Part shown: piece by piece, positions 12,582 to 29,478 of the stretch
Numbering within the stretch: the first letter of the stretch is position 1
Layout: each line of letters begins with the position of its first letter
Assembly (NCBI RefSeq): GCF_024223415.1
Contig: NZ_CP100500.1
Length of the DNA: 64,000 bases
Source: Escherichia coli
GTDB lineage: Bacteria > Pseudomonadota > Gammaproteobacteria > Enterobacterales > Enterobacteriaceae
Direction: 5' to 3' (one strand)
The notes under the pieces: generated by a model
The model's input: the letters and a program-made list of their open reading frames with translations, nothing else
Told to the model about the DNA's origin: nothing
Databases searched by the model: none
Made by a program: the position numbers and the translations under genes

Positions 12582-14041
12582 TGAAAAAATTACTGCGTCT
12601 TTTTTTCCCGCTCTCGCTGCGGGTACGTTTTCTGTTGGCAACGGCAGCGGTAGTACTGGTGCTTTCGCTTGCCTACGGAATGGTCGCGCTGATCGGTTAT
12701 AGCGTCAGTTTCGATAAAACTACGTTTCGGCTGTTACGTGGCGAGAGCAATCTGTTCTATACCCTTGCGAAGTGGGAAAACAATAAGTTGCATGTCGAGT
12801 TACCCGAAAATATCGACAAGCAAAGCCCCACCATGACGCTAATTTATGATGAGAACGGGCAGCTTTTATGGGCGCAACGTGACGTGCCCTGGCTGATGAA
12901 GATGATCCAGCCTGACTGGCTGAAATCGAATGGTTTTCATGAAATTGAAGCGGATGTTAACGATACCAGCCTCTTGCTGAGTGGAGATCATTCAATACAG
13001 CAACAGTTGCAGGAAGTGCGGGAAGATGATGACGACGCGGAGATGACCCACTCGGTGGCGGTAAACGTCTACCCGGCAACATCGCGGATGCCAAAGTTAA
13101 CCATTGTGGTGGTGGATACCATTCCGGTGGAGCTAAAAAGTTCCTATATGGTCTGGAGCTGGTTTATCTATGTGCTCTCAGCCAATCTGCTGTTAGTGAT
13201 CCCGCTGCTGTGGGTCGCCGCCTGGTGGAGTTTACGCCCCATCGAAGCCCTGGCAAAAGAAGTCCGCGAACTGGAAGAACATAACCGCGAATTGCTCAAT
13301 CCAGCCACAACGCGAGAACTGACCAGTCTGGTACGAAACCTGAACCGATTGTTAAAAAGCGAACGCGAACGTTACGACAAATACCGTACAACGCTCACCG
13401 ACCTGACCCATAGTCTGAAAACGCCACTGGCGGTGCTGCAAAGTACGCTGCGTTCTCTGCGTAGTGAAAAGATGAGCGTCAGTGATGCTGAACCGGTAAT
13501 GCTGGAGCAAATCAGCCGCATTTCACAGCAAATTGGCTACTACCTGCATCGTGCCAGTATGCGCGGCGGGACATTGCTCAGCCGCGAGCTGCATCCGGTC
13601 GCCCCACTGCTGGACAATCTCACCTCGGCGCTGAACAAAGTGTATCAACGCAAAGGGGTCAATATCTCTCTCGATATTTCGCCAGAGATCAGCTTTGTCG
13701 GTGAGCAGAACGATTTTGTCGAGGTGATGGGCAATGTGCTGGATAATGCCTGTAAATATTGCCTCGAGTTTGTCGAAATTTCTGCAAGGCAAACCGACGA
13801 GCATCTCTATATTGTGGTCGAGGATGATGGACCCGGTATTCCATTAAGCAAGCGAGAGGTCATTTTCGACCGTGGTCAACGGGTTGATACTTTACGCCCT
13901 GGGCAAGGTGTGGGGCTGGCGGTAGCCCGCGAAATCACCGAGCAATATGAGGGTAAAATCGTCGCCGGAGAGAGCATGCTGGGCGGTGCGCGGATGGAGG
14001 TGATTTTTGGTCGCCAGCATTCTGCGCCGAAAGATGAATAA
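12581..14041 (+). CDS. phoQ: Sensor histidine kinase PhoQ
   Basis: 486 aa; start overlaps phoP stop (ATGA); TM-periplasmic-HAMP-HisKA-ATPase layout. Confidence 0.95.
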
Positions 14042-14049
14042 ATATGTCC
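14039..14049. repeat. Left copy of short direct repeat taaatatgtcc overlapping the phoQ stop codon; candidate attL core
   Basis: 10-bp perfect match aaatatgtcc with 29402-29411 (13/15 over tgaataaatatgtcc vs tgataaaatatgtcc). Confidence 0.5.
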
Positions 14050-14121
14050 TTTTATCACCGATATTAGTTAATATATTGATTTAATTAAAAATATACACAA
14101 ACAAAAGTGCCAAAAATCGCA

Positions 14122-14147
14122 AATTAACTACACCATTAACTACACCG
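14122..14147. repeat. Inner 26-bp direct repeat aattaactacaccattaactacaccg, left copy (two tandem 13-mers); alternative att core
   Basis: Exact 26/26 match to 29252-29277; followed on both sides by similar phased repeat arrays. Confidence 0.8.
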
Positions 14148-14163
14148 TTCGGCGCACTGTATG

Positions 14164-14189
14164 AAACAACGTGGAACAAATAGGCACAA
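14164..14189 (+). promoter_or_regulatory. 10-bp-phased NNACAA direct repeats (AAACAA, GAACAA, GCACAA); putative recombinase/RDF or regulator binding array
   Basis: Motifs start at 14164, 14174, 14184; same family as arrays at 21838, 27909 and 29284. Confidence 0.4.
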
Positions 14190-14366
14190 GAAATATAAAG
14201 GCGGGTAATTTTAAGGGGGCGTTGCTGTCGATATGGGGATCCACATAACGGGGCTACCTGGCTTTTTTTCCGGTTAAATGTCAATCAGGCTGGTGGGCTT
14301 TACCTGTTCGGTAGGTGTTATGATTATCGTAATACCTTTCCCCCAATGGGGTAAAAGCATCAACCG

Positions 14367-14911
14367 TAACGAAAGTCGTTATGGTTGCCACCGATACTCC
14401 AAATTTGGGTATCACGAGTAAGCCCCAAAATCTGGGTGTTACTCTTACTACCCAAACTACGGGTAGTTTCCGTAGTTTCATGGTCGAGTTGCAGATCTGC
14501 AACTCCCCCATCAACCACAGGCGAATTTCCGCCTTCGGTCATTCCTTAATCATCTGCGTAATCATAATGATTATTCAGCCAGCTCAATTTTGAGCTTTGC
14601 TTTAAGTTCAGCGAGTTACCGCGCCGACTTCCTCAAATTGAGGTTTCCGAAAATATCAGTGGGTTAGCGATTAAGCAGATGGATAATTAACCTGCGAAAA
14701 TTTCGCAGGTTACATCAGCGACGTAATTCTCGCTGTTCCTGCCCGGAGGTGTCGACGAATTTCGTCGGAACCTAAGCCTGCCGGGAAGTCCGTACGTTAA
14801 ACGTACGGAGTTAATTCGACATCACACACTACGTTGTCAATTTGCAAAGGAGGGGCGGAAATCACCATACCTGCCACCCTGTCATACAGAAAGGGATTAC
14901 GATAATCGTAA
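14367..14911. repeat. Palindrome-dense noncoding block (at least eight perfect or near-perfect inverted repeats of 13-21 bp)
   Basis: Palindromes at 14367-14381, 14454-14478, 14486-14505, 14581-14596, 14631-14643, 14691-14709, 14752-14766, 14789-14809, 14897-14911; no convincing ORF. Confidence 0.6.
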
Positions 14912-14987
14912 CAGGATACAACGCCGCCTGTAATCGTAACCAATTGATTTTTATGATGACGCAAATCTGCGTTATCAGTCCTCAAAG

Positions 14988-15278
14988 TTACCGCCGCAAC
15001 CGTTCCGGCTTCTTCCACTGATAAGTGTTTTTCGCGCTCTCCTGATACATCGCCACGCGTCGACGGTATGCCAGCAACTCTAGTACTCTGATTCGTATGT
15101 CGCGCATATCCACGCCGTTAAGCTCAATACCGTCACGGCGCATCACCTCCGCCACAACACGCACATAATTTTCGGCGGTCACGCTGTCCGGCTGCGTGGC
15201 CTGTTCGTCATGCTGCTGGCTGATTCCGGTAACGCGGCGGATTAATCCCAGTAGTTCGGCTTCGCTCATTCTCGTCAT
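14988..15278 (-). CDS. Hypothetical protein (96 aa) downstream of terL
   Basis: ORF start overlaps the terL stop (translational coupling geometry); no recognisable motif. Confidence 0.4.
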   Translation of the reverse strand: MTRMSEAELLGLIRRVTGISQQHDEQATQPDSVTAENYVRVVAEVMRRDGIELNGVDMRDIRIRVLELLAYRRRVAMYQESAKNTYQWKKPERLRR

Positions 15279-19852: not shown

Positions 19853-20425
19853 TCACACCCCCGCTAAATCCACCCACCAGCGGCGATTATCCGCACGCGG
19901 CATTTTTTCGGGGTGCTGCTCATACAGGGAACGGCGGGCCAGCTCCACGCCGGAATCGGGGTAAGCCGGTACCGATGTAACGGTAATTTCGTACAGTTCC
20001 GCCACCAGCACGGTACGAACGCATGGATCTGTTGTGGTATCCCATACATCCTTACGGGAGCGAAAGCCAAAGCTCATGCCGGATATATCACCGCGTTTAA
20101 CCAGTTCGATAACGTCGCGCCCTGTACTGGTATCCGGTGGGGTCAGTTCAAAGCGTAACCCTGTTTCGTCCTCTTCCAGTTTCAGCGTGCCGGAACGGGT
20201 GCGCCCCAGTAACATGCTGTGGTCATGCTCATACAGGCCGCGAACGTCATTACCCGCCGCAAGCCATTCAGTAAACGCCCCCCGCTGGAATTTTTCGTAA
20301 AACTCACCCCATAACAGTTCTGAAAGCTTATCCCAGCGAACAACGTAGCCCGTCAGCGTACCGGCTCCGCTCGTGGTGATTTCCGATGACCGGATTTCCA
20401 TACTCTTCATAATTTTTTCACCCAT
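19853..20425 (-). CDS. Prohead maturation protease (HK97 gp4-like)
   Basis: 190 aa immediately downstream of the capsid gene. Confidence 0.75.
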   Translation of the reverse strand: MGEKIMKSMEIRSSEITTSGAGTLTGYVVRWDKLSELLWGEFYEKFQRGAFTEWLAAGNDVRGLYEHDHSMLLGRTRSGTLKLEEDETGLRFELTPPDTSTGRDVIELVKRGDISGMSFGFRSRKDVWDTTTDPCVRTVLVAELYEITVTSVPAYPDSGVELARRSLYEQHPEKMPRADNRRWWVDLAGV

Positions 20426-20464
20426 AAAACACTAAAGGGGCTTTTAAGCCCCTTCTGTATGCTG

Positions 20465-21622
20465 TTAATCGTCGTCCTGTGGCAGTTCCAGAATCTTGAT
20501 CGCGTTCGAATCCACCACGCCACCGCCTAAATATTTCTGCGTGAAAATTTTGATGAAGCCCGGCTCTGTGATGTTGTCCGGTCTGGTGCGAACACCTGTT
20601 TCGTGATCAACAATGTAGTAACCGCGTTTGAAGTCACCCAGGGCAATAACGTTATCAGGCATAAACTCCAGATATTCGACCGGAAGGCCCAGCAACGTAT
20701 CAGGATCACCCGCCTGTAAACGGTCGCGCCAGATGTAATCACCGTTCGCGTTCTTCACCTTCTGAAGTTTTGCCGCCGTTGTGGAGTTAACCACCCATAC
20801 CGCGTTCTTGCGGTATTTTTTACGCAATGCAAATTTCAGGTCGATCAGCGGGTCCGCAGATGTCCACGCCAGACCGTGAGCGGGCTTGATAACCTGCAAC
20901 GTTCCGAAGTCGCGTTCTTTGTCGCTCTTCTCTGCACGGGGGACGGATAAAAAGCCTTTTGCTTTTTTGTCACCGTCGCCCACAACCAGATCGCTTTCTT
21001 CGGTTTCCGTGAAGGTGTCGCCAATCTCGGCCGTCAGCCATGAAAGGATGTCCACATCGGAAAAATCCACGATTTCCTGTGTGGTGCGCGGGTACGCATA
21101 GACCGGATACAGCTTAATGCTCACCTCGTTAATCTGCGGGGTGCTGGTCTGTTCGCGTGCCTTACCCTCTTCACCGTGGTTAACGGTCGCACCGCCAGCG
21201 GAAACAAGCTGCTTAAACTCGTTGCTGCTGATTTTCTTCACGGTACAGATGCGGCGCATGGTGGATTCATCCGCCAGCATTCGCATGATTTCGGTGTTCA
21301 GTTCGGGGATAACGGTATAACCACCATCAGCGGGAACGCCTGTACTTAATGCGCGGGTTTCACCTGTCAGAATGTAGTTGCGTAGTTCTGCGGGGTCAGT
21401 GGTCTGACTGCTTTTACCTGGCTTGCTGCGCTCTTCGTCTGCAATGGCTTCAAGGCGGGAAATGTCTTTATCGAGGGATTCAGCTTTAGCGCGTAATTCA
21501 TCAAATTTTGCGCCCTCAGCATCGTTAAGACTGCGGTTTTCTTTTTCCGCGTTCTCCAGCATGTCGCGCATCTGATTTTTAATGGCGGTTTTCTGCTGGC
21601 GTAATTCGATTATTCTCGGCAT
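20465..21622 (-). CDS. Major capsid protein, HK97 fold, with N-terminal coiled-coil scaffold (delta) domain
   Basis: ATG at 21622 gives MPRIIELRQQKTAIKNQMRDMLENAE... (delta domain) then capsid body; the longer ORF to 21667 would read through a terminator hairpin. Confidence 0.85.
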   Translation of the reverse strand: MPRIIELRQQKTAIKNQMRDMLENAEKENRSLNDAEGAKFDELRAKAESLDKDISRLEAIADEERSKPGKSSQTTDPAELRNYILTGETRALSTGVPADGGYTVIPELNTEIMRMLADESTMRRICTVKKISSNEFKQLVSAGGATVNHGEEGKAREQTSTPQINEVSIKLYPVYAYPRTTQEIVDFSDVDILSWLTAEIGDTFTETEESDLVVGDGDKKAKGFLSVPRAEKSDKERDFGTLQVIKPAHGLAWTSADPLIDLKFALRKKYRKNAVWVVNSTTAAKLQKVKNANGDYIWRDRLQAGDPDTLLGLPVEYLEFMPDNVIALGDFKRGYYIVDHETGVRTRPDNITEPGFIKIFTQKYLGGGVVDSNAIKILELPQDDD

Positions 21623-21660
21623 AAAAAAAAGTCCTGGGGTTAAGTAAGGAACTCCAGGAC
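21623..21660 (-). terminator. Intrinsic terminator on the minus strand directly abutting the capsid start codon
   Basis: Minus strand reads gtcctgg-(16 nt)-ccaggac followed by TTTTTTTT, then ATG of the capsid gene. Confidence 0.45.
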
Positions 21661-21837
21661 GCGGCAAAAACTCAACCGTTTTTCATAAGGAAATCAGCAA
21701 TCGCACCGATCGTTTTCCCGCCTGGTAATGAATATTGGCGAGCACATTAACAGGCGGGAAAGTGGCCCCAGCGTCCTGGCACCACGGGCGAGAATAATCA
21801 TGATTCAGTTCGAGTAAAATATGCCGATCCGCTCAGT

Positions 21838-21896
21838 GAACAACCTGGAACAACCACGAACAAATAATTTACAAAACCTGAAAAAATAAATAAACT
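21838..21896 (+). promoter_or_regulatory. Promoter of the 157-aa gene with phased upstream repeats: GAACAA x3 at 10-bp spacing, then -35 TTTACA, 17-bp spacer, -10 TAAACT
   Basis: GAACAA at 21838, 21848, 21858; TTTACA 21868-21873; TAAACT 21891-21896; AGGAGG SD at 21924 and ATG at 21938. Confidence 0.45.
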
Positions 21897-21937: not shown

Positions 21938-22411
21938 ATGTCAGAAAATGAACTGAAAAAAGCAATGTTCATTCAGCAACGATTGCAGATTCTCCACCTT
22001 GGTAAACACTATGATGAGTTCAGTGATTCTTACGTGTATGCCTGGGAGGCAGATGTTTATCCTTTCTTGCAGGATGGCGACGGAAGTATTCCTGCTCGCC
22101 CACATGAAATTTACGAAGAGTTTTTCGGCACATCTAAAAACAAAGCCAAAAAGATATACGATCGTCTGTGCAAAGCCTGGCACGACCAGGAGGCACTCAC
22201 ATTCTATAAACTAGAAAGTGAATATGGTGTAACAAGTAGCAGCATGCACAGATGGACACGAAGTGATTTACTTCACATCTGCCGCTATCTGTATCTTGAG
22301 GGGTGTTTCGATAAAGATTTCTGGGAAACATTACTGGAAAACGGAAAATGCCCAAGCGAAGCACTTTACCTTAGCGATGAATTTAATCGCGATACAGAGA
22401 TCGACTTCTAA
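21938..22411 (+). CDS. Hypothetical protein (157 aa), stand-alone opposite-strand cargo gene
   Basis: Strong SD and promoter, own bidirectional terminator; only plus-strand gene inside the structural/regulatory part of the island; no recognisable domain. Confidence 0.65.
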   Translation: MSENELKKAMFIQQRLQILHLGKHYDEFSDSYVYAWEADVYPFLQDGDGSIPARPHEIYEEFFGTSKNKAKKIYDRLCKAWHDQEALTFYKLESEYGVTSSSMHRWTRSDLLHICRYLYLEGCFDKDFWETLLENGKCPSEALYLSDEFNRDTEIDF

Positions 22412-22448
22412 AAAAATGGCCTGGAAAATACCAGGCCATTATTATTCT
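22411..22448. terminator. Bidirectional intrinsic terminator between convergent genes
   Basis: atggcctgg-aaaata-ccaggccat flanked by an A-run on one side and T-rich sequence on the other. Confidence 0.55.
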
Positions 22449-26634: not shown

Positions 26635-26780
26635 AACCGGACGGGCAACGGTTACGCGCTTCGCGTTCCGTCCAGGCGGTCACGTGGATAATTTGAGATT
26701 CTCCGGCACTCAGTGCCAGAAAACGCCACACAAAGGCGGTTTGTGTGTGCGCTAGTCGTGGGGTATGCTGTGTTCCAGCC
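26582..26780 (-). CDS. Hypothetical small protein (about 66 aa), first gene of the leftward early operon
   Basis: C-terminal part of spurious 267-aa ORF, from ATG near 26780: MAGTQHTPRLAHTQTAFVWRF...; divergent from the RHH gene. Confidence 0.35.
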
Positions 26781-26867
26781 ATAATCGTTACTCCTGTTAA
26801 CGGTTTGGTTAGACGCCCTGCATGTGTTACAGCACTGCGGGGCGTTGTCTTTTTAACGGCTTTCGTG

Positions 26868-29248: not shown

Positions 29249-29251
29249 CAC

Positions 29252-29277
29252 AATTAACTACACCATTAACTACACCG
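29252..29277. repeat. Inner 26-bp direct repeat, right copy
   Basis: Exact match to 14122-14147. Confidence 0.8.
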
Positions 29278-29283
29278 ATCGTT

Positions 29284-29319
29284 GCACAAAGGGCTACAAC
29301 GTGAAACAAGCTGGAACAA
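29284..29319 (+). promoter_or_regulatory. 10-bp-phased NNACAA repeats (GCACAA, CTACAA, AAACAA, GAACAA) upstream of int on the opposite strand
   Basis: Motifs start at 29284, 29294, 29304, 29314; homologous to the array at 14164-14189. Confidence 0.4.
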
Positions 29320-29399
29320 GAAAAATCACAAATTTGTTTATAATCAAAAACATAATGCACAATCTGAAACATTATGAAACGGCAAAAAACACTAATTGA

Positions 29400-29411
29400 T
29401 AAAATATGTCC
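29400..29411. repeat. Right copy of short direct repeat taaaatatgtcc; candidate attR core
   Basis: Matches the sequence at the phoQ stop codon (14039-14049). Confidence 0.5.
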
Positions 29412-29478
29412 ATACTTCACGCATTACGTTAAGCATCCGTTATAATCGGTTGCAGATACCAGCCTGTGGATGCTTAAC

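Follow-up and report, generated by a model that had tools for sequence, protein, structure and literature searches.

A structured leader with a putative gate at the capsid start codon of an EcCIEDL933-type capsid-forming satellite in Escherichia coli

Results and Discussion

The capsid gene of an EcCIEDL933-type capsid-forming PICI (cf-PICI) in E. coli is preceded by a conserved leader made of three stem-loops (H1, H2, and H3), the last of which is followed by a run of U residues that reaches the start codon. As the best explanation, which we hold tentatively and at a little short of an even chance, we propose a dual gate in which H3 blocks the capsid start site and, in the EcCIEDL933 lineage, also attenuates transcription through its seven or eight U residues (U7-8). 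A sigma-70-type promoter would produce a 163-nt leader, and H3 would act as its gate on the capsid start site. When folded, H3 pairs the AGGA and ends 9 nt before the AUG; binding of the 30S subunit should be hindered because the only SD-like element is paired and the hairpin ends so close to the start codon. In the EcCIEDL933-type lineage H3 appears to have been remodelled and to have gained the U7-8 tail, a gain that would most likely make it a leader attenuator as well, with part of the transcripts ended just before the AUG. Expression would need H3 to be unformed or opened. The candidate for opening is pairing of GCGUCCUGG in the 5' arm of H3 with CCAGGACGC at the apex of H1, probably aided by an island or host factor, and a factor from a helper phage would not be needed. 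The conserved role of H3 is thus proposed to be, probably, start-site gating, with termination added in one leader type (type A).

cf-PICIs make their own capsids and move between species via borrowed phage tails; control of their packaging operon is a subject that the published cf-PICI descriptions we consulted do not take up. The leader and its promoter offer a concrete control point for capsid output, and an H3 gate could help explain the spontaneous appearance of tail-less capsids.

The island and its packaging module

The window, that is, the whole 64-kb stretch of DNA that was analysed, consists of E. coli chromosomal genes (purB, phoPQ, ycfD, and pepT) around an island of ~14.5 kb. The island spans roughly 14.9-29.3 kb of the window and carries minus-strand genes (Table 1). 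The published definition of cf-PICIs comprises int and alpA, a replication module, genes for capsid, protease, portal, HNH, TerS, and TerL, a size of 10-15 kb, and the lack of tail and lysis genes. We found int, alpA, a replication module, and an HK97-type packaging module in the island, and neither tail nor lysis genes. Its leader and capsid gene are 96-98% identical to those of islands in ~310 complete E. coli genomes, many of them O157:H7. Because of this identity to the O157:H7 islands and a gene content that fits the definition, we assign the island by sequence to the EcCIEDL933 type of cf-PICI.

An identical or near-identical island, annotated likewise, occurs in strain GF60 (L001). There it is flanked by a tqsA pseudogene and mdtJI, and in the window by phoQ and ycfD (14041-14988 and 29251-29470 in the comparison with L001). 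With such different flanks, the same packaging module occupies different chromosomal sites, probably with different integrases.

Table 1. Features of the island in the window
Feature	Coordinates	Strand	Remarks
Integrase	29251-28001	minus	island ORF map
alpA	27626-27438	minus	62-aa product, Phage_AlpA/excisionase type
RepA-type helicase	25614-24208	minus	
SSB	23443-23033	minus	
PerC-family protein, full-length	23022-22741	minus	Pfam PF06069, E 2.6e-37
82-aa protein gene	22695-22447	minus	
157-aa ORF	21938-22411	plus	opposite to other island genes; strong SD AGGAGG
Conserved upstream element, 49 nt	21838-21886	minus	TTTGTAAA box 21875-21868; two GGTTGTTC repeats
-35 hexamer TTTACT (inferred)	21813-21818	minus	position conserved: TTTACA, TTTTTA or TTTACY
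-10 hexamer TATTCT (inferred)	21791-21796	minus	TATNYT in 31/31 unique promoter regions
H1	21762-21785	minus	GTGGTGCCAG-GACG-CTGGGGCCAC; 5'-terminal stem-loop
H1 apex CCAGGACGC	21771-21779	minus	exact 9-nt complement of 21662-21654
H2	21714-21761	minus	long stem-loop, core CCCGCCUG/CAGGCGGG
GCGUCCUGG	21654-21662	minus	H3 5' arm plus 2 nt; pairs with H3 3' arm or H1 apex
H3 hairpin	21631-21660	minus	GTCCTGG (21660-21654) pairs with CCAGGAC (21637-21631)
SD-like AGGA	21635-21632	minus	at -13 to -10, in H3 3' arm, paired to UCCU of 5' arm
T8/U8 tract	21630-21623	minus	directly 3' of stem, no gap
Packaging module		minus	HK97-type capsid (21622-20465), protease, portal, two connector proteins, HNH, TerS, TerL
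HK97-fold major capsid gene	20465-21622	minus	TIGR01554, E 5.6e-88; start ATG 21622
GC-rich hairpin just after capsid stop	20434-20455	minus	terminator scan

The 157-aa ORF sits in the spot before the packaging module that has been reported as variable and is expected to hold immune systems; it had no family match in NCBIfam, PHROGs, or PADLOC. A bidirectional terminator (22415-22440) lies directly at its end. A promoter-like site precedes it on the plus strand (21868-21896), and its likely -35, TTTACA (21868-21873), matches, as reverse complement, a portion of the TTTGTAAA box that is invariant in the element upstream of the capsid promoter. Between alpA and the replication genes, a weak, sub-threshold match to the model of the SymR antitoxin RNA was seen on the plus strand (26777-26849; 24.7 bits against a gathering threshold of 61, E 0.53), which is probably due to chance.

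Promoter, upstream element, and leader

Regions upstream of capsid genes were taken from E. coli genomes, from one genome per species (Citrobacter, Erwinia, Hafnia, Winslowiella, Gilliamella, and Pasteurellaceae), and from IMG/VR. A common leader plan was found in 81 related loci, among which 31 promoter/upstream regions are unique. The two hexamers are present in all 31, with a -35 consensus of TTTWYN and a spacer of 16 nt, and the -10 lies exactly 5 nt before H1 in all 81 loci. Such a fixed distance would place H1 at the 5' end of the RNA, with transcription starting near 21785 at the first G of H1. We read the hexamers as a sigma-70-type promoter that belongs to the packaging operon itself.

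Upstream of the -35, the 49-nt element combines the TTTGTAAA box, invariant across genera, with two GGTTGTTC repeats (21855-21848 and 21845-21838) 10 bp apart. It is the sole segment shared (92-100% identity) with ~130 E. coli genomes whose leader is of another kind, and probably serves as a site for an activator or as an operator. Both in those ~130 islands and in O157, the upstream operon has its terminator immediately ahead of the element. With the upstream operons insulated by their own terminators, the packaging operon would depend on this promoter and leader.

The predicted leader of 163 nt is composed of H1, H2, a pyrimidine-rich linker, and H3, which adjoins the AUG. In 25 representative sequences, H1 was paired in 100% of cells, with four compensatory pairs. 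H2, judged from the fold of each sequence on its own, pairs in every lineage despite unrelated stems (CCACCCGG/CCGGGUGG, GGCCGUUUAA/UUAAACGGCC, and CCGUCAG/CUGACGG). A joint RNAalifold analysis of both leader types recovered H1 alone because H2 and H3 cannot be aligned between types.

Rfam covariance models gave no match with E up to 1 in the 15-30 kb part of the window and none to the leaders of four type-B loci; MIR821 matches in one of the loci compared (L002, from E. coli ATCC 43886) were spurious and located elsewhere than the leader. No Rfam family covers the leader. A search of 50,697 phage records returned it from cf-PICI-like entries only, and we found no mention of a promoter or terminator of the packaging operon in the published descriptions of cf-PICIs. 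These comparisons identify H1-H2-H3 as a conserved, previously undescribed structured mRNA leader. The order proposed in the first-pass annotation of this DNA, with a promoter, a short leader (~160 nt by our analysis), a hairpin with a U-tract, and then the late genes, is therefore supported, as the promoter is kept in the 31 unique upstream regions. O157 Sakai, on which dRNA-seq and Term-seq have been performed (Sy et al., 2020), should have a near-identical leader.

Two further observations were made in the loci collected. The 106-kb record of Klebsiella phage P12620-1 carries a cf-PICI-type leader, capsid, protease, and portal near one end (L108, 98625-105664) and may represent a chimeric assembly or a satellite packaged with the phage. 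Downstream of the primase gene in L002 (4207-4469), a long symmetric structured region gave spurious plant microRNA matches on both strands and may be the replication origin of that island.

The H3 hairpin and its U-tract

The H3 stem has 7 bp, five of them G-C. Its apical region measures 16 nt, in which an inner GUU/AAC helix adds three pairs across a 1x1 A.C mismatch and leaves an 8-nt loop. The T8 tract abuts the ATG (21622-21620) with zero bases between. The local fold reaches -14.1 kcal/mol, compared with -7.1 +/- 2.2 kcal/mol for 200 dinucleotide shuffles (z = -3.19; 0/200 as good). The first-pass description of a hairpin and eight T's directly before the capsid ATG was confirmed.

To place H3 among other sites, we scanned both strands of the 64-kb window for runs of at least seven T's that follow, without a gap, a hairpin whose fold reaches -12 kcal/mol or better. 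Five such sites were found, H3 being one and the remaining four lying at gene ends. On a d'Aubenton-Carafa-type score, H3 received +21 with T8 and +14 with T7, and the bidirectional terminator at 22415-22440 received +15. With its GC-rich stem followed by an ungapped U8 on the transcribed strand, H3 resembles the true terminators of the window and would qualify as an intrinsic terminator. A simple terminator scan does not pick it, because only loops of 3-8 nt are allowed there. Whether counted as the 16-nt apical region or as 8 nt with the inner helix and 1x1 mismatch, the loop is bigger than in typical intrinsic terminators, and the termination efficiency of H3 is uncertain given this large apical region. 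The U8 may act as the tail of a terminator, as a U-rich spacer helping translation, or as both. For transcripts of the plus strand a terminator was considered and rejected, as on that strand GCGGCAAAAAC, rather than a run of T's, comes after the stem.

Natural variants of H3 in type-A leaders mostly keep the pairing. In four loci, a CC>TT (CC>UU) variant turns the A.C mismatch into A-U and one G-C pair into G-U, which yields 11 continuous bp and -14.6 kcal/mol. Two of the other variants are compatible with the stem, one adds a bulge, and one is disruptive (CCAGGAC to CCATGAC in L054). Because the variants mostly keep the stem and the position of H3 is conserved, we judge H3 to be under selection. 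Defined mutations in the leader could be used for tuning or silencing the production of satellite particles; for a U-tract variant, the replacement sequence for T8 (21630-21623) is TTCTTCTT.

Comparison of leader types

Only type A, the kind found in the window and in O157, has GUCCUGG...CCAGGAC followed by U7 or U8. Type B comprises a second set of E. coli islands, Citrobacter, Erwinia, Hafnia, Winslowiella, two phage-database records, and many IMG/VR contigs. Its H3 (GGUUUCACG...CG(A)GAAACC) stops 3-6 nt short of the AUG, lacks a U-tract, and has a terminator score of -90; it is invariant in sequence, and the structure therefore has no covariation support. H3 adjoins the AUG in every enterobacterial lineage, at a distance of 3-6 nt or, with the U-tract between, of 9 nt. 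All lineages with the structured leader lack a good SD and have pyrimidine-rich sequence beside H3.

Type C leaders lack H1-H3 entirely and are A/C-rich with no SD before the capsid AUG. The same operon is kept behind them, and the structured leader would therefore be dispensable in some lineages. Type C loci (L092, L097, L098, L101, L102, and L106; IMG/VR) were seen to retain the TTTGTAAA box and a small terminator-like hairpin. The more distant Pasteurellaceae islands have an ordinary AGGAG SD.

Among homologous leaders the U-tract is thus confined to type A. Because H3 outside type A has no T-tract and a terminator score of -90, termination cannot, on this comparison, be its conserved, family-wide function, and would at most be a lineage-specific addition in type A. 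Within type A the sequences are at least 96% identical, so that conservation of the T-tract says little. The earlier view of the hairpin as a terminator gate consequently holds in part: the sequence here is of terminator grade, but the T-tract is lacking from the H3 of other lineages.

Capsid start codon and translation

Several observations point to ATG 21622 as the right start of the capsid gene. It is the start annotated by PGAP, capsid homologues all begin at the equivalent Met, and position 2 of the TIGR01554 profile falls at residue 8 of the protein that starts there. The tract is T7 in 32/40 type-A loci and T8 in 8/40, and the alternative TTG at 21667 is therefore out of frame with the capsid ORF in most of these close relatives. 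The first-pass annotation had likewise dismissed the TTG; the PGAP start, the homologous Met, and the T7 frame provide stronger grounds for doing so.

The duplex of the SD-like AGGA with the anti-SD of 16S rRNA amounts to -4.0 kcal/mol, compared with -8 to -12 kcal/mol for most other island genes, which makes it the weakest SD in the island; the type-B value is about -3 kcal/mol. It had been stated that no SD lies between the hairpin and the ATG. This is literally true, but the weak AGGA sits inside the 3' arm of H3, paired to UCCU. H3 spans -38 to -9 relative to the AUG, and the start region is thus paired within the ribosome footprint, as in SD sequestration. Because H3 sequesters the only SD-like element, translational gating would explain it equally well as termination does. 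The leader also contains small ORFs (MKNG-stop and one of 17 codons whose start lies in the H2 loop); these are without an SD and are present in type A only.

Other elements of the operon were also inspected. A recurrence of the same design (hairpin, U-rich run, and AUG without SD) at the protease gene was rejected, as relatives have GGAG or AGGTGA SDs there; the pattern was an artefact caused by which start codon had been taken. The annotated protease start is ATG 20425 (190 aa), and a second ATG at 20410, preceded by GGGTGA and matching the start in O157 islands, is probably the true one. The hairpin after the capsid stop codon has an equivalent in most relatives checked and is probably a partial terminator or an mRNA stabiliser, raising capsid mRNA relative to the downstream genes.

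Complementarity between H1 and H3

The 5' arm of H3 is complementary to the apex of H1 as well as to its own 3' arm. The equivalent pair in type B (AGACGUGA/UCACGUCU) covers 7-8 nt, extendable to ~11 bp, in the same alignment register and with compensatory changes. In an alignment of nine leaders, the GACG loop and its CGUC partner are invariant and the flanking positions change in concert; in the set of 25 leaders, one sequence has a GGCG loop that still pairs via G-U. The H1:H3 pairing was found in 84% of cells (25 sequences) versus at most 42% in shifted registers, with four compensatory pairs, although this covariation comes essentially from one split between the A and B lineages. The probability that the complementarity arose by chance is ~0.002 for type A and 0.011 for type B.

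Compared with H1 plus H3, the alternative H1:H3 conformer loses 6-9 kcal/mol of stability; for GCGUCCUGG its cost over the MFE is +9.2 kcal/mol. Folded H3 would therefore be the default state, and its opening would need a factor or a kinetic effect. Pairing with the H1 apex is a possible way to open H3.

Search for an override factor

A terminator in front of the capsid gene had been expected to be overridden by antitermination. Searches of the island proteins against PHROGs, NCBIfam, Pfam, and the PDB found no member of the Q, N, Ogr/Delta, or RNA-binding antiterminator families, and the sigma-dependent pause element TANN[AT]T is absent from +1 to +30 in both type-A and type-B leaders. The AlpA antiterminator of P. 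aeruginosa (PaAlpA) acts via a DNA element embedded in the promoter and a terminator just upstream of the first gene, and structures of PaAlpA with RNAP have been reported. The island AlpA was rejected as a protein of this type, as a phmmer search against all PDB chains with E up to 10 matched 8c3t only.

PerC is encoded within 1.5 kb upstream in 37/40 type-A loci versus 4/40 type-B loci, an association that is confounded because perC is physically adjacent to the leader. The PerC-like protein of EcCIEDL933 has been reported to have no effect on LEE1, and PerC-like genes of PICIs have been treated as accessory virulence regulators. We consider PerC as an override factor to be a lead only. In the type-B cf-PICI of E. 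coli ATCC 43886 (L002, 5201-5731), a gene for a ProQ/FinO-family RNA-binding protein lies a few hundred bases upstream of the leader, a hint that control may act on RNA in some islands.

For EcCIEDL933 and a relative from Klebsiella, filled capsids without tails have been reported at significant levels when no helper was induced, and overexpression of alpA alone drives capsid production of the EcCIEDL933 type. An override encoded by a helper is therefore unnecessary and silencing of the genes is not tight, so that any gate would have to be leaky or opened from within the cell. The proposals of an antitermination override and of capsid genes kept silent until a helper or island factor is present are thus weakened. 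Taken as a whole, the first-pass reading stands for the hairpin, the layout, and the ATG start, and is weakened or left without support for conserved termination, a detectable antiterminator, the helper requirement, and tight silence.

Weighing the alternatives

The explanation closest to the first-pass reading is that H3 with U8 is an efficient dedicated terminator and that the operon is silent until a Q-like or PaAlpA-like protein of the island or helper modifies RNA polymerase at the promoter. The terminator-grade sequence speaks for it, and both lambda PR'-tR' and P. aeruginosa alpB offer a parallel to the succession of a promoter, a leader (163 nt here), a terminator, and the first gene. 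The terminator-like hairpin after the capsid gene would need read-through too, several small island proteins have no assigned function, and PerC co-occurs with the leader type. We nevertheless find this rather unlikely: homologues of the known factors were not detected, the island AlpA leading to 8c3t only; there is no -10-like pause element in the first 30 nt; capsids are made without a helper phage; the co-occurrence of PerC may simply reflect its physical linkage to the leader, and PerC is not known to act in antitermination; and in sister lineages, where promoter, H1, and H2 are the same, a terminator that would need overriding is missing. A role of H3 in translation or mRNA stability only is an explanation that we regard as doubtful but as a serious minority one. 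The likeness to a terminator would then be incidental, termination would be negligible given the large loop, and U8 would be a site for ribosomal protein S1 or a spacer that replaces the pyrimidine-rich linker found 5' of H3 in other lineages. In its favour, H3 is ancestral to the family in a form that lacks a U-tract, which is also the commonest form, every lineage lacks a good SD and has pyrimidine-rich sequence beside H3, type C has neither hairpin nor SD in its A/C-rich leader, capsids arise spontaneously, and the loop is atypically large for a terminator. Against it, a 7-bp GC-rich stem with U7-8 is close to a minimal sufficient signal for E. coli RNA polymerase. H3-U8 scores as high as a genuine terminator of the island, and some termination is therefore hard to avoid.

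It is quite improbable, in our view, that H1 and H2 form a cis-acting antiterminator RNA of the put kind, so that H3-U8 and the hairpin after the capsid gene would always be read through and H3 would be translational only. Two adjacent stem-loops at the very start of the transcript, of which H1 keeps its sequence and H2 its structure, would suit such an RNA, as would a long operon with internal terminator-like hairpins, and a U-tract could then arise in type A without apparent cost. However, no sequence or model match to known RNA families was obtained, the likeness is one of architecture, and type C keeps the same operon without H1-H3. Least credible, and very improbable, is that the inverted repeats act as DNA, either as the operator of a regulator or as a packaging (cos) element. 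The repeats in question, CCAGGACGC and GCGTCCTGG, lie ~110 bp apart and could be paired operators, and the stem contains CCWGG Dcm sites. Yet each repeat lies in a stem-loop backed, on the transcribed strand, by compensatory changes or structure-preserving variants, and the asymmetric U-tract suggests a strand-dependent signal. In the gene order of HK97, cos lies between the HNH and TerS genes, and by this analogy it would be expected there in the island as well.

Comparison with known systems

The alpBCDE genes of P. aeruginosa likewise have an intrinsic terminator immediately upstream of the first gene, in a prophage-like setting and with a regulator named AlpA. Despite the shared name, the 62-aa AlpA of the island has no detectable homology to that regulator, and no AlpA-binding element was identified. 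Attenuators and riboswitch-like dual platforms resemble H3 in the AGGA:UCCU pairing, the U-tract, and the upstream competitor for the 5' arm. Unlike in riboswitch-like leaders, the competitor here is itself tied up in a stable hairpin at the 5' end, switching would cost 6-9 kcal/mol, and there is no Rfam match. The put RNA of phage HK022, a cis-acting antiterminator RNA, is alike in having two stem-loops right after the promoter of a long phage-type operon with terminators, a likeness of architecture only.

The layout is shared with the lambda PR'-6S and StxS leaders that end in tR' under the control of Q, with a promoter, a leader of ~160-260 nt, and an intrinsic terminator before late or structural genes. 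In contrast to lambda late control, the island has neither a Q homologue nor a pause-inducing -10-like element; in contrast to tR', H3 abuts the start codon and contains the SD-like element, and sister lineages keep the leader without the terminator. IsrK of the Gifsy-1 prophage, as summarised by Sy et al. (2020), is a further system close to this one. A terminated leader of the EcCIEDL933 lineage could accumulate as a small RNA, as StxS does. In its broadest and unlikely form, our proposal by analogy is that H1-H2-H3 constitutes an undescribed class of cis-regulatory RNA that would time cf-PICI capsid production across Enterobacterales through a switch between H3, as gate on start site and terminator, and H1:H3 driven by an island or host signal, and that in the EcCIEDL933 lineage the terminated leader of ~160 nt would also accumulate as a stable small RNA that has its own function, like StxS.
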